Source: Escherichia coli (lineage in GTDB: Bacteria > Pseudomonadota > Gammaproteobacteria > Enterobacterales > Enterobacteriaceae). Taken from it: a DNA stretch of 64,000 bases. The position numbers and the translations under genes are program-made. Location of the stretch: NCBI RefSeq assembly GCF_003334815.1, contig NZ_QOWO01000013.1, one strand, 5' to 3'. Under the pieces are notes generated by a model. It saw nothing but the letters and a program-made list of their open reading frames with translations, was not told the DNA's origin and searched no databases. This document shows, piece after piece, positions 92 to 53,920 of the stretch (position 1 is the stretch's first letter; each line of letters begins with the position of its first letter).

Positions 92-1507
92 TTAAACTTC
101 TTTAAGTTTTGCGGTGAAGTGACGCAATACTTTCGGTTCGTACGTAAAGGTTAATCCTTTAATATTCGCCGCGTTCTCTTTCACATGTTTAAAGGCTTCA
201 ATAATGAAGTCCATATGTGTTTGAGTATATGTTGCGCGCGGAATGGTTAAACGCAGCAGTTCAGCCGGGCATGGCAGTTGTTTACCGGTTTTCGGATCGC
301 GGCCTAACAGGAAAGAGCCAATTTCTACCGCACGGATACCGGCGACTTTATACAGCTCGCAGGCCAGCGCCTGTGCCGGGAACTGGTCTGCCGGGATATG
401 CGGCAACAGTTTACCGGCATCAACGAATGCCGCGTGACCGCCCGCCTGCTGGCAGACAACGCCAATCTCTTCCAGACCATCGACCAGATACTGTACCTGC
501 GCGATACGATAAGCCAGCCAGTCGAGATTCATGCCGTCATACAGACCTACCGCCAGACGCTCCATCGCGCCGCCTTCCAGGCCGCCATATGTCGGGAAGC
601 CTTCCTGCACCACGCAAAGGGTTCTGCACTCGGTGTACACATCAAAGAAGCTGTCGTCTTTCATGCACAGCAGGCCGCCCATCGGCACCATCGCATCTTT
701 CTTGGCGGACATCGCCAGCATATCGGCATATTTGTAGGTTTCGCGGGTGATCTGCTCGATGGTCCAGTCTTTGTATTCTGCTTCACGCTGCTTGATGAAA
801 TAGGCGTTTTCAGCAAAGCGCGCGGAGTCCATTACCACCGGAATATCGTATTTCTTCGCGATGCTGTACATCGCTTTTAAGTTTGCCAGTGAAACCGGCT
901 GACCACCTGCAGAGTTACTGGTGATGGTTGCAACGATATACGGCACGTTATTCGGACCAACTTCTTCAATACCGCGTTCTAATCCCTCAAGGTCAAAGTT
1001 GCCTTTAAAGTCGTAACGCACGCCCGTATCGAAGGCTTCTTTGATATAGACGTTACGCACGGTACAGCCGTTGATCTGGCTATGGCCCTGCGTGGTATCA
1101 AAGAAATAGTTAGAGAACGCCACCATTTTGCTGCGATCCAGGCCTTTTTCCTGCTCGCGTTTTTTAATCAGTACCGGAATATAGATTTGCTCTGCGCCAC
1201 GGCCCTGGTGAGTCGGAATGGTGTATTGATAACCAAAGATATTTTTCACTGACTCGGCTAACGCATAGTAGCTACGACTGCCGCTGTAGGCTTCGTCGCC
1301 GCGCATCATCGCAGCCTGCATGCTCTGCGTCACCGCCCCGGTGCCGCTGTCGGTCAGTAAATCGATAAACACATCTTCGCTATCCAGCAGGAACGGGTTC
1401 ATACCGGATTTAATAATTGCCTCTTCACGATAAGCGCGAGTGGTACGTTTTACTGGCTCAATAACACGAATGCGGAACGGTTCAGGGAGATGTTTAAAGT
1501 TTTCCAT
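92..1507 (-). CDS. tnaA: Tryptophanase (PLP-dependent tryptophan indole-lyase)
   Basis: ORF 92..1522 translates to [18 protein letters not shown]... with the [15 protein letters not shown]-lysine region; start set at the MENF methionine to give 471 aa. Confidence 0.95.
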
Positions 1508-1727
1508 TACATAATCCTTCATTTATTTTAATTACAGTGATCCCTGTGAATATTACATCTGCTATACCGATTAATTCGCCAGATATATATGCAAGCACCA
1601 TCATTTACTAAAACAAGTAAATAAACGAGAGATGACCTTTGCAAAAGGCAAAATTAAGATATAGCAAACAAATAGATCACATTGAATCTAATCGGTTTGG
1701 CTCTGGTGATGGCTACAGAAGGGCAAA

Positions 1728-1802
1728 TCAAGGGCGGTGATCGACAATTTTGTTGTCAATATTGAACCATTTTGAGGTCACACATATATGTAAGATATTC
1801 AT
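1728..1802 (-). CDS. tnaC: tna operon leader peptide (24 aa, Trp-sensing nascent peptide)
   Basis: Minus-strand reading gives ATGAATATCTTACATATATGTGTGACCTCAAAATGGTTCAATATTGACAACAAAATTGTCGATCACCGCCCTTGA = MNILHICVTSKWFNIDNKIVDHRP, about 220 bp upstream of tnaA. Confidence 0.9.
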   Translation of the reverse strand: MNILHICVTSKWFNIDNKIVDHRP

Positions 1803-1877
1803 AATGCACTTATCCTCGCAAGACACGAGGCTACATTATTACACTCAGAGTTTTTGTCTATTCTGAAATTGTTTAAA

Positions 1878-1893
1878 TGTGAATCGAATCACA
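1878..1893. promoter_or_regulatory. CRP (CAP) binding site of the tna promoter
   Basis: Palindrome TGTGAATCGAATCACA (TGTGA-N6-TCACA) about 80 bp upstream of the tnaC start codon on the minus strand. Confidence 0.6.
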
Positions 1894-2044
1894 ATCGTTC
1901 GGGGAGCAATATTAAATGCTTTTTTTAAAGATTATAAATTACGTAAGAATTTTAATGTTTAAAAAAAGGGTTGAGGAATAACAGGAGTGGTAACAATGAA
2001 GCGAAGCCGCATCTGACAGTCAGAATGCGGCTTCGTAAGCGCGG

Positions 2045-42959: not shown

Positions 42960-43060
42960 GGCAAAACTAAGAAATTTTCCAGGTTTTGCCTGGACGCTAT
43001 CTCAGGCCTGATTTGCTGCTGATTTTTACAATGCATGCCTCACGCAGGTATTCATTTCAG
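42960..43060 (+). promoter_or_regulatory. uhpT promoter region (UhpA-activated, CRP-assisted); boundaries approximate
   Basis: Intergenic uhpC-uhpT segment containing GCCTGGACGCTATCTCAGGCCTG repeat-like motifs upstream of the uhpT start; assignment is from locus knowledge. Confidence 0.45.
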
Positions 43061-43069
43061 GAGTAACCC

Positions 43070-44461
43070 ATGCTGGCTTTCTTAAACCAGGTTCGCAAGC
43101 CGACCCTGGACCTTCCGCTCGAAGTGCGGCGCAAAATGTGGTTCAAACCGTTCATGCAATCCTACCTGGTGGTCTTTATCGGCTACCTGACGATGTACCT
43201 GATTCGCAAGAACTTTAACATCGCGCAGAACGATATGATTTCGACCTACGGGTTGAGCATGACGCAGCTGGGGATGATCGGCCTGGGTTTCTCCATCACT
43301 TATGGCGTGGGTAAAACGCTGGTTTCCTACTACGCCGACGGCAAAAACACCAAACAATTCCTGCCGTTCATGCTGATCCTCTCTGCTATTTGTATGCTGG
43401 GCTTCAGTGCCAGTATGGGCAGCGGCTCGGTTAGCCTGTTCCTGATGATTGCCTTCTACGCCTTAAGCGGCTTTTTCCAGAGTACCGGCGGTTCGTGCAG
43501 TTACTCCACCATCACCAAATGGACGCCGCGTCGTAAACGCGGGACATTCCTCGGTTTCTGGAATATTTCTCACAACCTTGGCGGTGCAGGCGCAGCAGGT
43601 GTGGCGCTGTTCGGGGCAAATTACCTGTTCGATGGCCATGTCATCGGCATGTTTATCTTCCCGTCGATTATCGCGCTGATTGTCGGTTTTATCGGCCTGC
43701 GTTACGGCAGCGACTCCCCGGAATCTTATGGCCTCGGCAAAGCTGAAGAACTGTTCGGCGAGGAGATCAGCGAAGAGGACAAAGAGACAGAATCTACCGA
43801 TATGACCAAGTGGCAGATCTTTGTTGAGTATGTGCTGAAAAACAAAGTGATCTGGCTGCTGTGCTTCGCCAACATTTTCCTCTATGTGGTACGTATTGGT
43901 ATCGACCAGTGGTCAACCGTATACGCGTTCCAGGAACTGAAACTCTCTAAAGCGGTGGCGATTCAGGGCTTTACGCTGTTTGAAGCTGGTGCGCTGGTCG
44001 GTACGCTGCTGTGGGGCTGGCTCTCTGACCTGGCGAACGGTCGCCGTGGCCTGGTGGCCTGCATCGCGCTGGCGCTGATTATCGCCACGCTCGGTGTGTA
44101 TCAACATGCCAGTAACGAATATATCTATCTGGCTTCTCTCTTTGCGTTGGGTTTCCTGGTCTTTGGCCCGCAATTGTTGATTGGTGTGGCTGCTGTTGGC
44201 TTTGTACCTAAAAAAGCGATTGGCGCTGCCGATGGTATTAAAGGCACCTTTGCTTACCTGATTGGTGACAGCTTTGCCAAGTTAGGTCTGGGAATGATTG
44301 CCGATGGGACGCCGGTATTCGGCCTTACCGGCTGGGCAGGCACCTTCGCCGCGCTGGATATCGCCGCGATTGGTTGTATCTGCCTGATGGCGATAGTGGC
44401 GGTAATGGAAGAACGCAAAATCCGCCGCGAGAAAAAAATTCAGCAGTTGACAGTGGCATAA
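43070..44461 (+). CDS. uhpT: Hexose-6-phosphate:phosphate antiporter UhpT (MFS)
   Basis: 463-aa [52 protein letters not shown]... Confidence 0.95.
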
Positions 44462-44479
44462 ACGTAACTGGTGACTTTT

Positions 44480-44506
44480 GCCCGGCATGACGCCGGGCTT
44501 TTTTTA
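44480..44506. terminator. Terminator hairpin between convergent uhpT and ade
   Basis: GCCCGGCATGACGCCGGGC followed by TTTTTTT; sits between the two stop codons. Confidence 0.8.
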
Positions 44507-46273
44507 TTATTCCGTGACTTCCAGCGTAGTGAAGGCAAACTTCTCGCCATCAAATAGCCCCTGACTGGTTAGTTTTAGCGCGGGGATCACTGGCAGAGAA
44601 AGAAACGCCATCTGAATAAACGGCTCATCGGGTAACGGACCGCATTCACGGGCGGCGGCTTTCAAGGCGTCAATTTGTTCCGCCAGCGACTGCGCCGTGT
44701 CGGTGCTCATCAGCCCGGCAATGGGTAACGGCAGATGACTTTGTACCTGGCCGTTACGTACCACGCACAGCCCGCCGCCATCCTGAATCACCTGATTGAC
44801 CGCCAGCGCCATCTCTTCGGCACTGCGACCGATCACCACAATATTATGGCTGTCATGGCTGACCGTCGCAGCCAGCGCACCTTCATTCAGTCCAAAGCCG
44901 CCAAGCAAACCACAAGCCGGAGCCAGCCGTTGCCCGTAACGCTCAAGTACGGCAATAAAGCTCACATCATCGCGATCAAAACCATTTTCGCTGTAGACGC
45001 TGGAGTGGGAGTGCGTAATCAATTCGTTATGGATGACGTCAATGACCCGATAGCGTTTTCCGGGCGTAAATTGCAGGGCAAAGTCGCTGGCGGAAACTGG
45101 CTGGCGGGCAATGGTGTTGCCATATGGCGGAGCGGATTGTGCCAGTCTCGCCGACTCTTCCGCCTGTAAGGTTTGCGCATCAATCGGCTCGCCTTTCACC
45201 AGTACCTGCTGCACCGTGACCTTACGCGCATCGCTCAACAGGACGATATCGGCCTGCTTGCCGGGTGCCAGTAAGCCGAGGTGATTCAGACCAAAGTGGC
45301 GCGCCGTCGACCAGCTGGCGACGCGATATGCCACATGCAGCGGCACATTGTGTTGTTCGATCAGGCGGCGAATTAAGGCATCGATGTGTCCTTCATGGGC
45401 GATCTCCCACGGGTTACGGTCATCGGTACAGAGCATGCATTGCGGGCTGTTAAATTCGTTGATCAACGGTGCCAGCGCGTTGAGATTGCGGGCAGCGGAC
45501 CCTTCGCGGATCATCAACGACATGCCGAGTTGTAATTTCCGGCGTCCTTCTTCCAGCTGATAACTTTCGTGGCAGTTTTCAATACCCGCAGTAATATAGG
45601 CGTTAAGTTCTTTACCACCCAAACCCGGGCAGTGACCGTCCAGCGTCAGGTGGCGAAATGCATCCAGTTTATCGAGCAGCGCATTCTGCCCGCTAATTAC
45701 GCCAGGGTAGTCCATCATTTCTGCAAGGCCGGTAACCTGCGGATGGTCCCGCCAGGCGAGCATCTGTTCAAGGGTAAAACTGGCACCGTTAACATCGCAG
45801 CCTTCCAGGGCGGGTACGCAAGAGCTGACCTGTAAGTACTGGTTTTGCCTTGCCTGTTCGGCACAGCGGGCAAACCAGGCGAATCCGGCTTCGCCCATCA
45901 CGTTGACGATTTCATGAGGGTCGCAAATAACGGTCGTCAGGCCGCGCGGCAGGGTAGCGGTTTCAAAAGTGACCGGCGTCATCATGCTGGATTCAATATG
46001 CAGGTGAGCATCAATAAACCCTGGCACCGCCGTTGCGCCGCGAGCATCAATCCGCTGCAAAGCCGGAGCATCAGTGTATTCTGCGCCAACACCGGCAATG
46101 TAACGTCCTTTAATCACAATTGGGCCGGAAATTTCTCCGCCATTGATCAGGTCGAGAATAGAGACATTATCAATAATATAATCGGCAACAGCGTCGCCAC
46201 GGGAAACGGCTAACAATTCCTGGTATTCAGCCCGGCTAATGTGATGAAATTTATGGTTAATAGAATTATTCAT
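44507..46273 (-). CDS. ade: Adenine deaminase
   Basis: 588-aa [66 protein letters not shown]..., amidohydrolase family with the metal-binding [11 protein letters not shown] motif. Confidence 0.9.
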
Positions 46274-46447
46274 ATTTTTCTCATTTTGATTTTATCAATT
46301 TGATTATTATTTATCATAAAGAAACGTCGCGAGATTATTAAAGAATATCCATTAATGTGCAATTGAAATGTGATAATTATCACTGAACCGTTGTTGTCAT
46401 TTGTTTTACAAAAGCAAGGGATTAAATCTCCTCCAATGGACAAAAAA

Positions 46448-47782
46448 ATGAATAATGACAATACCGATTACGTGAGTAATGAATCAGGGACGCTTTCGCG
46501 ATTATTTAAACTACCTCAGCATGGGACCACCGTCCGCACAGAATTGATTGCGGGGATGACCACTTTTTTAACCATGGTGTACATCGTTTTTGTGAACCCG
46601 CAAATCCTCGGCGCGGCACAAATGGACCCGAAAGTGGTGTTTGTTACCACCTGTTTGATTGCCGGTATCGGCAGTATTGCGATGGGGATATTTGCTAACT
46701 TACCCGTGGCGCTGGCTCCGGCAATGGGGCTGAACGCCTTCTTTGCCTTCGTGGTCGTGGGGGCGATGGGCATCTCCTGGCAGACCGGGATGGGCGCAAT
46801 ATTCTGGGGCGCAGTTGGACTATTTTTGCTCACGCTGTTTCGTATCCGGTACTGGATGATCTCCAACATTCCCTTAAGTTTACGTATTGGTATCACCAGC
46901 GGAATTGGATTATTTATCGCCTTAATGGGATTAAAAAATACTGGCGTTATTGTCGCCAATAAAGACACGCTGGTGATGATTGGCGATTTAAGTTCTCACG
47001 GCGTGTTGTTAGGTATTTTAGGGTTTTTTATTATAACCGTGTTGTCATCACGTCATTTTCATGCCGCGGTGCTGGTTTCTATTGTGGTGACGTCTTGCTG
47101 TGGATTATTTTTCGGTGATGTTCATTTTAGCGGCGTCTATTCCATTCCGCCTGATATTAGCGGCGTCATTGGTGAAGTAGATTTGAGCGGCGCGTTAACA
47201 CTTGAACTCGCCGGTATCATTTTCTCCTTTATGCTGATCAACCTATTTGATTCATCAGGAACATTAATTGGTGTAACTGATAAAGCGGGCTTAATAGATG
47301 GTAACGGTAAATTCCCCAATATGAATAAGGCGCTGTATGTTGATAGCGTCAGTTCGGTGGCGGGTGCGTTTATCGGCACCTCGTCTGTTACTGCCTATAT
47401 TGAAAGTACTTCTGGTGTGGCAGTCGGTGGCCGCACGGGGCTGACTGCGGTTGTGGTTGGCGTTATGTTCCTGTTGGTTATGTTCTTCTCACCGCTGGTG
47501 GCGATAGTTCCTCCTTACGCAACCGCCGGAGCGTTAATCTTTGTTGGCGTGCTGATGACTTCGAGCCTGGCGCGCGTTAACTGGGATGATTTTACCGAAT
47601 CGGTGCCTGCGTTTATTACCACGGTGATGATGCCCTTTACTTTCTCGATCACCGAAGGGATTGCACTCGGCTTTATGTCGTACTGCATCATGAAAGTATG
47701 CACCGGGCGCTGGCGCGATCTGAACCTGTGTGTGGTGGTGGTCGCAGCTCTGTTTGCACTGAAGATTATTCTGGTGGATTAG
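46448..47782 (+). CDS. adeQ: Adenine permease (AzgA/NCS2 family), YicO
   Basis: ORF MNNDNTDYVSNESGTLSRLFKLPQHGTTVRTELIAGMTTFLTMVYIVFVNPQILG...; 444 aa from that start, divergent from ade. Confidence 0.85.
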   Translation: MNNDNTDYVSNESGTLSRLFKLPQHGTTVRTELIAGMTTFLTMVYIVFVNPQILGAAQMDPKVVFVTTCLIAGIGSIAMGIFANLPVALAPAMGLNAFFAFVVVGAMGISWQTGMGAIFWGAVGLFLLTLFRIRYWMISNIPLSLRIGITSGIGLFIALMGLKNTGVIVANKDTLVMIGDLSSHGVLLGILGFFIITVLSSRHFHAAVLVSIVVTSCCGLFFGDVHFSGVYSIPPDISGVIGEVDLSGALTLELAGIIFSFMLINLFDSSGTLIGVTDKAGLIDGNGKFPNMNKALYVDSVSSVAGAFIGTSSVTAYIESTSGVAVGGRTGLTAVVVGVMFLLVMFFSPLVAIVPPYATAGALIFVGVLMTSSLARVNWDDFTESVPAFITTVMMPFTFSITEGIALGFMSYCIMKVCTGRWRDLNLCVVVVAALFALKIILVD

Positions 47783-47834
47783 TAACTGGCGAGGGTTTCC
47801 AGATATCATGAGTTCTGATTACGCAGGAGAACTC

Positions 47835-48287
47835 ATGATCTGGATAATGCTCGCCACGCTGGCGGTAGTGTTTGTGGTTGGTTTTCGGGTGCTGACATCC
47901 GGGGCCAGAAAAGCGATTCGCCGTCTCAGCGATCGGCTGAACATCGATGTCGTACCCGTGGAGTCGATGGTCGATCAAATGGGAAAGTCAGCTGGTGACG
48001 AATTTTTACGTTATTTGCATCGTCCGGATGAGTCGCACCTGCAAAACGCCGCGCAGGTGTTGCTCATCTGGCAAATTGTCATTGTCGATGGTAGCGAACA
48101 GAACCTGCTGCAATGGCATCGGATTTTACAAAAAGCTCGCCTCGCCGCGCCGATTACCGACGCTCAGGTCAGGCTGGCGCTAGGTTTTCTGCGCGAAACC
48201 GAACCTGAAATGCAGGATATTAATGCTTTTCAGATGCGCTATAACGCGTTCTTTCAGCCTGCCGAGGGCGTTCACTGGTTGCATTGA
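47835..48287 (+). CDS. yicN: Uncharacterized protein YicN (DUF1198)
   Basis: ORF MIWIMLATLAVVFVVGFRVLTSGARKAIRRLSDRLNID...; 150 aa. Confidence 0.8.
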   Translation: MIWIMLATLAVVFVVGFRVLTSGARKAIRRLSDRLNIDVVPVESMVDQMGKSAGDEFLRYLHRPDESHLQNAAQVLLIWQIVIVDGSEQNLLQWHRILQKARLAAPITDAQVRLALGFLRETEPEMQDINAFQMRYNAFFQPAEGVHWLH

Positions 48288-48325
48288 AACCGTTTCGTCT
48301 TATCAGCCTACAGACCGCGCCTGAC

Positions 48326-48363
48326 CTGTCGGGTGGATAAGACGTTCACGCCGCATCCGGTAA
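48326..48363. repeat. REP element downstream of yicN
   Basis: GTCGGGTGGATAAGACGTTCACGCCGCATCCGGTAA. Confidence 0.7.
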
Positions 48364-48497
48364 TCTTTGCCCTGTTCCGTTTCGATCTTAACTCCAGCTC
48401 AAGCAACACCGTAAAAGTTGCAAAAACGTTAAATGCGTCACACATTTCAATGTTAAAGTGGTCGGCTTTTCCCCTGAAACATGCCACGGGTAACACC

Positions 48498-49688
48498 ATG
48501 AGTGAATTTATTGCCGAAAACCGCGGCGCGGATGCCATCACCCGACCGAACTGGTCAGCCGTTTTCTCGGTGGCGTTTTGTGTCGCCTGTCTGATTATCG
48601 TTGAGTTTTTGCCCGTCAGTTTGTTGACGCCAATGGCCCAGGATTTAGGCATTTCGGAAGGGGTTGCCGGGCAATCGGTGACCGTGACCGCCTTTGTGGC
48701 AATGTTTGCCAGTTTGTTTATTACCCAGACAATTCAGGCTACTGACCGCCGCTACGTTGTTATTTTGTTTGCCGTTTTGCTGACGCTCTCCTGCTTGCTG
48801 GTTTCCTTTGCTAACTCATTCAGTTTGCTTTTAATCGGTCGTGCCTGTCTGGGGCTGGCGCTGGGCGGGTTCTGGGCGATGTCGGCGTCGCTGACCATGC
48901 GTCTGGTGCCGCCGCGTACGGTGCCGAAGGCGCTGTCGGTGATCTTCGGCGCGGTTTCTATTGCGCTGGTGATTGCCGCGCCGTTGGGCAGTTTTTTAGG
49001 CGAGCTTATCGGTTGGCGCAATGTCTTTAATGCGGCGGCGGTGATGGGCGTGCTGTGTATTTTCTGGATTATCAAATCATTGCCTTCACTGCCAGGCGAA
49101 CCCTCGCATCAGAAACAAAATACTTTCCGCTTATTACAACGTCCGGGTGTGATGGCAGGGATGATCGCCATCTTCATGTCTTTCGCCGGGCAGTTTGCTT
49201 TCTTCACGTATATTCGCCCGGTGTATATGAACCTGGCGGGATTCGGCGTGGATGGCTTAACGCTGGTGCTGTTGAGTTTTGGTATCGCCAGCTTTATTGG
49301 TACGTCGCTTTCGTCGTTCATTCTTAAACGTTCGGTAAAACTGGCCTTAGCAGGCGCGCCGTTAATACTGGCTGTGAGTGCGTTGGTACTGACGTTGTGG
49401 GGAAGCGATAAAATCGTTGCTACCGGCGTGGCGATTATCTGGGGGCTAACTTTTGCATTGGTTCCCGTCGGCTGGTCAACGTGGATCACCCGCTCGCTGG
49501 CCGATCAGGCAGAAAAAGCCGGGTCTATTCAGGTGGCGGTTATTCAGCTTGCTAATACCTGTGGCGCGGCAATCGGCGGTTATGCGCTGGATAATATTGG
49601 TCTGACTTCGCCGTTGATGTTGTCCGGCACATTGATGTTGCTGACTGCATTGTTGGTTACTGCAAAGGTGAAAATGAAGAAATCCTGA
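48498..49688 (+). CDS. nepI: Purine ribonucleoside efflux pump NepI (MFS), YicM
   Basis: [58 protein letters not shown]...; 396 aa. The ORF-track 5' extension runs through the REP element and is not coding. Confidence 0.85.
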
Positions 49689-49728
49689 TATCAGGTAAAG
49701 AAGCGTTGGTCAGTAGTTGTTGCTGTTC

Positions 49729-50022
49729 TTACATATCCGGGCATTCTACCTTACCCAACGCTTCCCAATAATTGCTCTGATTATTACGTTCCATCGCCAC
49801 GATGGCCTCGCGTATATGTTGTTTATTGTTTTCATCTGACAACATTAACTTTTCCCACGCTTCATCTGATAATGACGCCTGTGGCGTGCAAATTTTACGT
49901 AAATCTTGTAATACCGTGGTTTTCTCTTTTGCGGACTGCAGTGAGCTAAAAGGCGACTCGGCGTATACGATGCCTGGCATAGCGAAAAAAGTGAAAATAA
50001 GCAGTAGTGTCGTTGGTTTCAT
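49729..50022 (-). CDS. yicS: Small secreted protein YicS
   Basis: 97-aa ORF with an N-terminal signal peptide MKPTTLLLIFTFFAMPGIVYA. Confidence 0.8.
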   Translation of the reverse strand: MKPTTLLLIFTFFAMPGIVYAESPFSSLQSAKEKTTVLQDLRKICTPQASLSDEAWEKLMLSDENNKQHIREAIVAMERNNQSNYWEALGKVECPDM

Positions 50023-50243
50023 GGATTCAACCTTTTACAAATGTGTATCGAATGAAGCATAAGTGTAGTTTGCTTTCATCGCTCTCATCATGCTGTACGA
50101 AACGCGCTTGCGTGGTCAGTAAGAAGTGCCAGACTTTATATTCCACTTTTATTCCTTTTTATTCTTATCGATAGCGTTTCGTTTTTTAAACCGCAGCGAC
50201 CTTACCGCTATAGTCAGGTAATCATTAATAAAAGGATAAAAAA

Positions 50244-51062
50244 ATGAAACTGACAACACATCATCTACGGACAGGGGCCGCATTATTGCTGGCCGGAATT
50301 CTGCTGGCAGGTTGCGACCAGAGTAGCAGCGATGCAAAACACATTAAAGTTGGCGTTATAAATGGCGCAGAACAAGATGTCGCGGAAGTCGCTAAAAAGG
50401 TGGCAAAAGAGAAATATGGCCTCGATGTTGAACTGGTAGGATTTAGCGGTTCGTTGCTACCGAACGATGCGACAAATCATGGCGAACTTGATGCGAATGT
50501 CTTCCAGCATCGACCCTTTCTTGAACAAGATAATCAGGCGCATGGTTATAAACTGGTAGCGGTGGGAAATACGTTTGTCTTCCCTATGGCGGGTTATTCC
50601 AAAAAAATCAAAACCGTGGCGCAAATAAAAGAAGGCGCGACAGTGGCGATCCCCAACGACCCGACCAACCTTGGTCGCGCACTTTTACTGTTGCAAAAAG
50701 AGAAGCTAATTACTCTGAAAGAGGGAAAAGGGTTATTACCTACCGCGCTGGATATAACCGATAATCCTCGTCATTTGCAGATTATGGAACTCGAGGGGGC
50801 GCAGCTCCCGCGCGTACTGGATGATCCCAAAGTTGATGTAGCGATTATCAGCACCACTTACATTCAGCAGACCGGGCTTTCTCCGGTGCACGACAGCGTA
50901 TTTATTGAAGATAAGAATTCGCCGTATGTGAATATTTTGGTGGCACGGGAAGATAATAAGAATGCAGAAAACGTGAAGGAATTTCTGCAATCTTATCAAT
51001 CACCCGAAGTCGCTAAAGCGGCAGAAACCATTTTTAACGGTGGCGCGGTGCCTGGCTGGTAA
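50244..51062 (+). CDS. nlpA: Lipoprotein 28 (methionine-binding lipoprotein)
   Basis: 272-aa ORF MKLTTHHLRTGAALLLAGILLAGCDQSSSDAKHIKVGV... with a lipobox LAGC. Confidence 0.9.
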   Translation: MKLTTHHLRTGAALLLAGILLAGCDQSSSDAKHIKVGVINGAEQDVAEVAKKVAKEKYGLDVELVGFSGSLLPNDATNHGELDANVFQHRPFLEQDNQAHGYKLVAVGNTFVFPMAGYSKKIKTVAQIKEGATVAIPNDPTNLGRALLLLQKEKLITLKEGKGLLPTALDITDNPRHLQIMELEGAQLPRVLDDPKVDVAIISTTYIQQTGLSPVHDSVFIEDKNSPYVNILVAREDNKNAENVKEFLQSYQSPEVAKAAETIFNGGAVPGW

Positions 51063-53284: not shown

Positions 53285-53920
53285 TCTTCTGAATCACCGG
53301 GCGAAAAAATATAACTGAGTTACAAATAAGTACCAGTCGAATGAGTATTGTATTAAGAATTTTTGAGTATCGCTGATACAACCAGAAAGCAATGCTAGCG
53401 CAATATTATAGGGCCAGCAATTGAGATTATTAGTAAAAGCATGTTAAGAATTAATTACCGAATTTATATATTAATTATAGTAAGGCAATGAGCTATTTTT
53501 GATAGTAAAAATAAAACAAGTTGATTTGATATATTAAATGAACAAATTAATCTTGATGGCAGTCTGATTATTGGTGAAGTTTATAGTCAGTTTTTTTCGC
53601 CAGCGGTTAAAGAAATAGAATAGTCGTATAAAAAAGGGTGTTCTGGGGCGAGTAAAACAACATCTTCACCTTAATGGCGATACAGTTGGCTGAGAGTCAG
53701 CAGGGGGGCAAATCACCTGCAAATAAACACGGCGCATACTGGCGTGAATATCGCGGATGCGTTCGAGGACAGAAGAACCGACAGGCGGATTCTTCAGCCG
53801 CTCATCGTCCATCACAAAACCTTAGACCAGGTATTCCTGAAGCCGATTGAATATTGAGCAGTAGAAAATATCTGGATTGACAGTATTACAAGGGGTTGGA
53901 GAACGTCAGGAGAGGCATTT

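Follow-up and report, generated by a model that had tools for sequence, protein, structure and literature searches.

The adeD-adeQ control region of Escherichia coli: cross-genus conservation of a divergent adenine utilisation locus and its natural IS events

Introduction

The adenine deaminase gene adeD and the adenine permease gene adeQ of Escherichia coli are transcribed away from each other out of one short spacer, which raises the question of whether the two genes are controlled together and which bases of the spacer would carry that control. We addressed this question in a 64,000-nt stretch of E. coli DNA (hereafter the window). The locus is the K-12 gene pair for adenine utilisation, which is already known, and its divergent control region has been published; it is a textbook-style case of a gene that is silenced by H-NS, depends on CRP and can be activated by IS elements, and confirming this adds no new biology. 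What we add is a cross-genus footprint of the control region and a survey of natural IS events. The present analysis supplied the gene identities, the layout of the locus, the CRP site with its conservation, the evidence of purifying selection and the clustering of IS events; for H-NS silencing, activation by IS elements, binding of CRP and Crp-dependent expression we rely on the literature.

Results and Discussion

Gene identities and boundaries of the spacer

The original prediction placed ade on the minus strand and adeQ on the plus strand, diverging from an AT-rich intergenic region of 174 bp, and its coordinates proved exact to the base against both the open reading frame list and the RefSeq annotation (Table 1). 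The two genes occupy exactly these positions in the RefSeq annotation of identical DNA from strains 300709, ER1709 and MG1655, and the DNA of the locus was 100% identical to that of K-12 derivatives (ER1709, an MG1655 record and C600). MG1655 coordinates are obtained as 3890237 minus the window coordinate. We found no difference from the K-12 ade (yicP/adeD)-yicO (adeQ) locus: sequence, genes and spacer are the same, as are the H-NS silencing and the activation by IS elements reported for it, and this is the same locus. It was found in 5,418 of 5,426 complete E. coli genomes.

AdeD (RefSeq WP_001065718.1, b3665) matched the equivalog model NF007457 over its full length (residues 1-588; 1266 bits, cutoff 768) and the amidohydrolase superfamily model TIGR01178 over residues 31-584 (840.8 bits, cutoff 472.5). 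The conversion of adenine to hypoxanthine by adenine deaminase is credited by citing papers to Matsui 2001 and Kamat 2011. AdeQ was identical to the K-12 protein b3664, carries the RefSeq name "adenine permease AdeQ" (WP_001403836.1) and matched Pfam PF00860 (Xan_ur_permease) over residues 32-405 (E = 1.1e-44). Since no NCBIfam model matched AdeQ at E <= 0.001, the RefSeq name must come from another naming rule.

An older annotation starts AdeQ at a GTG at 46370, giving a protein of 470 aa. We rejected this start because it lies inside the CRP site described below and because the DNA from there to 46448 has diverged as far as neutral sites and contains frame-breaking indels in the cross-genus alignment. 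The ATGAATAATGA start of adeQ was kept across genera, and together with the upstream indels this favours 46448 as the start of the gene.

Table 1. Positions of genes, control elements and the IS hot spot in the window
Feature	Position	Strand	Basis or remark
adeD (ade, yicP), adenine deaminase, 588 aa	44507..46273	-	ORF list, NCBIfam, RefSeq annotation of identical DNA
adeQ (yicO), NCS2-family adenine permease, 444 aa	46448..47782	+	RefSeq annotation, PF00860
Divergent spacer, 174 bp, 27% GC	46274..46447	.	Composition; orthologous spacers
Low-GC tract, presumed H-NS-bound	46196..46480	.	174-bp windows with GC <= 30%, composition profile; H-NS binding presumed from literature
Low-GC tract, MG1655 coordinates	3,843,757-3,844,041		
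CRP site TGTGATAATTATCACT, centre 46376.5	46369..46384	.	One mismatch to TGTGA-N6-TCACA
Candidate adeQ -10 TACAAA	46407..46412	+	Tentative, read from sequence; predicted start near 46418-46419; class II CRP geometry
adeD-proximal conserved block, 45 bp	46274..46318	-	Cross-genus identity; putative promoter role
-35-like ATGATA	46317..46312	-	Within conserved block
TG extension	46297..46296	-	Upstream of -10 TAAAAT, conserved block
-10 TAAAAT	46294..46289	-	Within conserved block
Palindrome TTGATTTTATCAA	46286..46298		Within conserved block
SD-like GAG	46282..46280	-	Within conserved block
Alternative adeD promoter candidate TTAATA-17-TATGAT	46313..46341	-	Escherichia only; predicted start near 46306
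Hot spot of IS1/IS5/IS903B insertions and IS1-bounded deletion endpoints	46200..46263	.	adeD codons 4-25; mapped breakpoints

An AT-rich spacer between two genes under purifying selection

The AT-richness that had been noted was borne out: GC content in the spacer was 27% against 51.9% for the whole window, and equally AT-rich 174-bp windows made up the lowest 0.27% of all such windows in the 64 kb, the spacer being one of four such patches. The low-GC tract around it (about 280 bp, GC 24-30%, minimum 23.6%) reaches into the 5' ends of both adeD and adeQ. An Rfam scan of 43000..49500 (E <= 1) returned two sub-threshold chance matches, neither inside the spacer, and no riboswitch or known sRNA was detected there.

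The divergent adeD/adeQ pair was kept in 14 Enterobacterales loci from Enterobacteriaceae and Morganella. Orthologous spacers in Escherichia, Citrobacter, Kluyvera and Cedecea measured 172-176 bp with 26-30% GC, so that length and AT-richness have been retained also where sequence similarity has fallen to that of neutral sites. Morganella has the pair with a spacer of 221 bp and 43% GC that lacks a CRP site, so the control architecture is younger than the gene pairing. Identity across genera was 84-97% at codon positions 1 and 2 and 49-55% at third positions, indicating purifying selection on both genes and identifying adeD as a maintained gene rather than a decaying one.

The description of ade as cryptic and H-NS-silenced in K-12 agrees with passages in two papers (PMC2753651, PMC13274399) that credit Petersen 2002 (Petersen, Moller and Valentin-Hansen, J Biol Chem 277:31373) with the finding that H-NS silences ade and that IS elements activate it. 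In adenine cross-feeding cocultures, a passage of one of them reports, IS insertions were enriched upstream of adeD in the adeQ/adeD spacer (PMC13274399). Our literature search found no report of H-NS silencing adeQ. Over-expression of TosR, an H-NS antagonist, in uropathogenic strain CFT073 raised yicP by a log2 value of 4.4, along with fimbrial and other genes; the main table of upregulated genes in that paper has yicP only, and yicO does not appear in its main text (PMC5956150). The 10-bp high-affinity H-NS motif TCGWTWAATT was uninformative, as the window holds 177 matches to it where 181 would be expected, which is no enrichment; within the tract it occurred at two mismatches only, for example as TTGATAAAAT at 46289..46298.

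A single CRP site conserved across genera

Near the middle of the spacer we identified one near-consensus CRP site, at a distance of 64 bp to the start codon of adeQ and 96 bp to that of adeD. Matches of this quality are expected by chance about 1.6 times per 64 kb, or about 0.004 times per 174 bp. A one-mismatch site was kept in 12 of the 13 orthologous Enterobacteriaceae spacers scanned, the site of E. albertii having two mismatches. Both half-sites were 100% conserved in Citrobacter, Kluyvera and Cedecea, and the inner 6 bp varied in the genera other than Escherichia.

Published data bear on this site directly. Genomic SELEX showed that CRP binds the yicO<>ade spacer (Shimada et al. 2011, PMC3105977), and a 2021 study (PMC8085971) found both adeD and adeQ to be Crp-activated by comparison with a crp deletion strain and included both among its gel-shift-validated promoters. 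The single site is probably the positive element that the two genes share, through which cAMP-CRP would increase the expression of both when carbon sources are poor. Other divergent E. coli pairs with a CRP site in their common spacer (PMC3105977) resemble adeD/adeQ in having a single CRP site and a short spacer, with both adeD and adeQ Crp-activated.

Could the two genes instead be mere neighbours with independent promoters and regulation, so that the AT-rich spacer and the shared CRP site serve no joint function? Only adeD has been reported as H-NS-silenced and TosR-responsive, Serratia sp. DD3 has an adeD without an adjoining adeQ, and the pairing is absent in distant phyla. We nevertheless consider this reading improbable, given the reported Crp activation of both genes, the binding of CRP to the spacer at a single conserved site, and the retention of pairing, spacer length and spacer GC in four genera despite the neutral-level drift of much of the spacer sequence. 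The proposal in the original prediction of a co-regulated adenine module is supported by joint Crp activation (PMC8085971), CRP binding to the spacer (PMC3105977), the conserved site and the conserved divergent pairing.

Promoter positions and the geometry of CRP activation are predicted here from sequence. Relative to the candidate starts, the CRP centre would lie at about -41.5 to -42.5 for adeQ and at -70.5 or -94.5 for adeD. The TTT(T)A(C/A)AAA stretch at the candidate adeQ -10 was moderately conserved in the alignment. If the extended -10 element is the adeD promoter, the CRP centre would fall near -94.5, about 2 bp off the usual class I position.

A constrained block next to adeD

The 45 bp adjoining adeD formed the second conserved part of the spacer. 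Within this block E. coli and the other genera shared on average 91% of their bases, whereas identity was 54-59% in the remaining spacer and 52-58% at synonymous third positions. The putative promoter of the block ranked first among promoter-like sites in every sequence from Escherichia and Citrobacter, and Kluyvera and Cedecea have it too. Together with the CRP half-sites, the block provides a base-level map of the spacer positions under selection. A 15-codon upstream open reading frame (ATG at 46317..46315) was considered as a leader peptide and rejected, as its start codon is not kept in Kluyvera and Cedecea.

The strength of this conservation raises another explanation, namely that adeD is controlled mainly by a specific regulator (for example an adenine-, purine- or nitrogen-responsive one) acting on the palindromic block (TTGATTTTATCAA, TGAT-N8-ATCA), with H-NS silencing a secondary effect of laboratory conditions. 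In Citrobacter and Kluyvera the block was 89-98% identical, including the promoter spacer, which promoters alone normally leave unconstrained, and purifying selection on adeD implies that inducing conditions must exist. Against this, the block has the same edges as the stretch between the -35 element of the predicted promoter and the ATG, so part of its conservation is already accounted for, and none of the three known motifs checked (PlaR, AdnB and PurR) fits. A search allowing up to three mismatches found no PlaR box (ATnTGAAACnnnGTTCAnTT) in the spacer, which leaves the published PlaR SELEX peak at adeQ/adeD without motif support. By eye, the block palindromes do not match the AdnB (YdhB) motif TCAA-N5-TTGA, and adeD is not among the targets claimed in the AdnB preprint; no PurR box was seen by eye either. 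We regard control mainly by such a regulator as unlikely, though with some chance of being right, and it is compatible with H-NS silencing and a shared CRP site as the main explanation.

Natural IS events at the 5' end of adeD

Among E. coli genomes carrying the locus, at least 80% of it lay in one place in 5,385 of 5,418. The hot spot within the first adeD codons was disrupted in 27 of 5,409 genomes (about 0.5%), and control segments were disrupted in 0 of 5,408 and 3 of 5,394. At least 15 genomes had, through IS insertions or IS1-bounded deletions, lost the promoter together with the first 3-25 codons or been hit in codons 54-107; the events at the hot spot truncate the first codons of adeD. 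Strains EC-07, EC291, SEV1, ET776, TL-14 and R18 are among those with natural IS alleles.

Such losses would be expected if adeD were a decaying cryptic gene and the insertions its ongoing inactivation. This view is very hard to reconcile with the other data and has only a slight chance of being correct: nearly all genomes carry the gene intact, disruptions are confined to about one genome in two hundred, purifying selection acts across genera, and the promoter block and the CRP site are conserved.

The recurrent wild events could help to show whether alleles of this kind turn the enzyme on in the wild. On a more speculative reading, which we hold to be doubtful, the conserved block would be the operator for a regulator that induces adeD naturally, and the recurrent IS1, IS5 and IS903B events at codons 4-25 would be selected, de-silenced alleles in which signals on the IS element drive an active deaminase shortened at its N-terminus; adeD would then not really be cryptic.

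Proposed mechanism and comparison with known systems

Taken as a whole, the evidence makes it very probable that the K-12 pair diverges from one 174-bp AT-rich spacer with an H-NS-silenced adeD, a shared CRP site and a constrained adeD core. AdeQ would import adenine, which AdeD would deaminate to hypoxanthine and ammonia. H-NS, according to the literature, would coat the low-GC tract and leave adeD nearly silent in laboratory K-12, a silencing that would be lifted by mutation of hns or by an IS element inserting close to the promoter. Binding of cAMP-CRP at the mid-spacer site would raise both genes on poor carbon sources. The 45-bp block, with its TG-extended -10, palindrome and ribosome-binding region, is probably the adeD core promoter and the site of silencing or of another regulator.

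The bgl operon has a CRP site in its promoter region, as at ade; unlike at bgl, we know of no antiterminator layer at ade. This classic H-NS-silenced cryptic locus, whose CRP-dependent promoter is activated by insertion of IS1 or IS5, also resembles ade in its AT-rich promoter region and in the reported H-NS silencing and relief by IS elements (PMC2753651). The two differ in that the ade region lies between two diverging genes and serves a transporter as well, and in that natural IS events at adeD fall mostly inside the first codons rather than upstream of the promoter.

AdeP (PurP), the paralogous E. coli adenine permease, shares its NCS2 (AzgA-like) family and its substrate with AdeQ. Its gene presumably does not adjoin adeD on the K-12 map. 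A passage on the cross-feeding evolution experiments reports that adeP was amplified, whereas the adeQ/adeD spacer gained IS insertions instead (PMC13274399).

The translation-initiation regions of adeD and adeQ were mirrored, with 20 of 25 nt identical. Equally speculatively, this likeness could mark a common post-transcriptional control of the two genes.

Gene identities and composition of the spacer

The adenine deaminase gene adeD (ade, yicP) and the adenine permease gene adeQ (yicO) are divergently arranged on the minus and plus strands. The ORF list, together with the RefSeq annotation of the identical sequence in MG1655 (m = 3890237 - w, with w the window coordinate), in ER1709 (a K-12 derivative), and in strain 300709, exactly matched the arrangement and spacer coordinates of the original prediction. 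The adenine deaminase equivalog NF007457 spans the whole of AdeD, scoring 1266 bits where the cutoff is 768, and AdeQ contains the PF00860 permease domain. The locus was found in 5,418 of 5,426 complete E. coli genomes and was chromosomal in every case. The predicted AT-richness was also borne out, as the GC content of the spacer is 27% compared with 51.9% for the window, and in a window-wide scan only 0.27% of 174-bp windows were equally AT-rich. The low-GC tract extends from approximately 46196 to 46480, reaching into the initial codons of adeD and of adeQ. The remaining low-GC patches of the window lie at 1488..2008 and 53301..53668, the former holding a perfect CRP consensus, TGTGAATCGAATCACA, at 1878..1893.

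A mechanical ORF call starts adeQ at GTG 46370 (470 aa), which we take to be the older yicO gene model. This start was rejected because the GTG falls within the CRP site and 46370..46447 shows neutral-level divergence and frame-breaking indels, indicating that this segment is not coding.

Features of the adeD/adeQ locus and natural IS events. Identities are those of E. coli against other genera.
Feature	Position	Strand or placement	Identity	Source or genome
adeD, adenine deaminase, 588 aa	44507..46273	-		ORF list and RefSeq annotation of identical DNA
adeQ, adenine permease	46448..47782	+		ORF end from ORF list; start from RefSeq annotation
Spacer, 174 bp	46274..46447	between adeD and adeQ starts		RefSeq annotation
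CRP site TGTGATAATTATCACT, near-consensus	46369..46384
CRP half-sites			100%; inner 6 bp vary
adeD-proximal block	46274..46318		91% on average
Rest of spacer			54-59%
Synonymous third codon positions, adeD and adeQ			52-58%
IS903B insertion	46200-46209			SEV1, SEV4
IS5 insertion	46210-46213			EC-07
IS1 insertion	46212-46219			EC291
IS1A insertion	46232-46243			ET776
IS1-bounded deletion	46262-50256 removed			VG888-46E9
IS1-bounded deletion	46264-50398 removed			TL-14
IS1-bounded deletion	46217-50398 removed			R18
IS1-bounded rearrangement	46225 joined to inverted 53323			I3

Conservation of the CRP site and the adeD-proximal block

CRP matches of this quality are expected by chance about 1.6 times per whole 64 kb, or roughly 0.004 times per 174 bp. 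When orthologous loci were collected by a genome scan with AdeD, the divergent pair was found in Escherichia species, Citrobacter, Kluyvera, Cedecea, and Morganella; the scan found no pair in Serratia sp. DD3, nor at any distant-phylum locus with a 35-40% identical adeD homologue. The Enterobacteriaceae spacers are 172-176 bp long with 26-30% GC. Of 13 orthologous spacers scanned, 12 carry the CRP site with one and the same mismatch, while in E. albertii the site has two mismatches. In an alignment of 12 Enterobacteriaceae spacers, the CRP half-sites and the conserved 45-bp block upstream of the adeD start codon were far more conserved than either the rest of the spacer or synonymous positions (see table), which indicates that these two elements are under selection. 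The remaining sequence drifts, yet it stays AT-rich and its length is constant. In Morganella the spacer measures 221 bp at a GC content of 43%, and no CRP site was found in it; the genes were therefore paired before this control architecture arose.

In the same alignment, TTGCAA or TTGCAT abuts the 5′ side of the TGTGA half-site in Citrobacter and Kluyvera (approximately 46357..46368), and in E. coli TGCAATTG lies a few bases more distant. This motif resembles a half-site for CytR, which controls nucleoside catabolism genes; a single CRP site accompanies the putative half-site.

Conservation also bears on whether adeD is a decaying gene. Between genera, its identity is 84-97% at codon positions 1 and 2 compared with 49-55% at position 3. 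Together with the conserved promoter block and CRP site, these values ruled out decay, so "cryptic" refers to laboratory conditions and not to lost function.

Candidate promoters and translation starts

The adeD-strand sequence of the adeD-proximal block is ATGATAAATAATAATCAAATTGATAAAATCAAAATGAGAAAAAT, and the ATG comes next. Scanning with a simple weight matrix identified a TG-extended -10 element, TGaTAAAAT (46297..46289), with a -35-like ATGATA (46317..46312) that forms the upstream edge of the block. This was the top promoter-like site in all Escherichia and Citrobacter sequences and was found in Kluyvera and Cedecea. A promoter here would leave an adeD leader of only about 9 nt and place the CRP centre near -94.5. 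The alternative candidate, TTAATA-17-TATGAT, was found in Escherichia only; its start is predicted near 46306, and relative to this start CRP would lie near -70.5, as is standard for class I sites. Conservation of the promoter spacer suggests a further constraint on the block, for instance through H-NS nucleation or through a specific factor. The block also contains a palindrome, TTGATTTTATCAA, at 46286..46298. The sole plausible candidate for adeQ is TACAAA (46407..46412, plus strand), a weak -10 relative to which the CRP site would sit at a class II distance. For both genes, the promoters are candidates predicted from sequence.

The translation-initiation regions of adeD (46265..46289) and adeQ (46432..46456) are near mirror images: their sense-strand reads, TCAAAATGAGAAAAATATGAATAAT and TCCAATGGACAAAAAAATGAATAAT, are identical at 20 of 25 positions, and both proteins begin M-N-N. 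The inverted repeat scored 15 (300 dinucleotide shuffles averaged 10.3 and reached no more than 14), and its conservation in other genera is only partial. A five-codon mini-ORF, ATGAGAAAAATATGA (M-R-K-I-stop; 46270..46284, minus strand), overlaps the adeD start codon as ATGA. Apart from minor changes, all 12 Enterobacteriaceae spacers retain it; this may merely reflect the SD-like GAG.

Natural IS events at the adeD 5′ end

Among complete E. coli genomes, IS elements were clustered at the adeD 5′ end within codons 4-25 (46200..46263). By short-query counts, 27 of 5,409 genomes carried breaks in approximately 46146..46284, compared with 0 of 5,408 and 3 of 5,394 in two control segments of equal size; the spacer proper (approximately 46264..46456) was broken in 7 of 5,397. 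IS elements of these kinds prefer AT-rich, H-NS-bound DNA, and the clustering fits this preference. In a junction search, the match spans of ES9 and strain 800 equalled those of ET776 (123 nt) and TL-14, respectively; judged from these spans, each pair probably carries the same event. Other events lay at 46104-46112, 45953-45961, 46457-46466, 46918-46920, and 47563-47573, and the distal endpoint in I3 falls in the low-GC patch 53301..53668. The IS1 transposase pointed toward adeD in 12 cases and away in 2 (a raw count that ignores clonality), a bias that adjacent-deletion geometry may explain.

In these events adeD loses its native promoter together with its first 3-25 codons, and several of the events also delete adeQ-yicN-nepI-yicS. 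The conserved family core of AdeD begins at residue 31, and the annotation pipeline still calls adeD ORFs of 572-585 aa in the disrupted alleles, starting in the IS end.

Published regulation and proposed mechanism

That ade is cryptic, silenced by H-NS, and activated by IS elements had already been published (Petersen, Moller, Valentin-Hansen 2002, as cited in passages of PMC2753651 and PMC13274399). The suggested co-regulation of the pair finds direct support through CRP: genomic SELEX placed "yicO<>ade" among divergent pairs with a CRP site (Shimada et al. 2011, PMC3105977), and a 2021 transcriptome study counted adeD and adeQ among newly recognised targets of Crp activation, with Crp binding validated by gel shift at promoters on the list in which both appear (PMC8085971). 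The original observation is real, and its interpretation is correct and already known biology. In uropathogenic CFT073, TosR over-expression raised yicP (log2 4.4) along with fimbrial and other genes; yicO is not named in the text of that paper (PMC5956150). Activation of yicP by a kan cassette reading out of yicO has also been suggested in the literature.

In the most likely mechanism, H-NS would coat the AT-rich tract and silence adeD. At high cAMP, the single central CRP site would activate both divergent promoters, and the silencing of adeD would be lifted when H-NS is lost or an IS element inserts. Silencing by H-NS, binding of CRP, and dependence of expression on Crp are taken from these papers; the identities of the genes, the anatomy of the locus, its conservation, and the clustering of IS elements are established here, and the promoter geometry is inferred. 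No known system is closer than the E. coli adeD/adeQ locus itself; among analogues, the bgl operon comes closest.

Neighbouring genes

Downstream of adeQ, yicN (DUF1198; 47835..48287) follows after 52 bp, and a terminator scan detected no terminator-like site in this gap; yicN may be co-transcribed with adeQ. All Escherichia, Citrobacter, and Kluyvera loci have yicN at this position; those of Cedecea and Morganella do not. The gene after yicN is nepI, a purine ribonucleoside exporter, so that the neighbourhood looks like a purine-handling cluster. On the other side, the MG1655 annotation places the small RNA UhpU (3′ end of uhpT) at 44242..44507 (plus strand), with a strong terminator hairpin at 44480..44498. 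Since the final base of the adeD stop codon is also where UhpU ends, uhpT/uhpU and adeD converge with essentially no gap.
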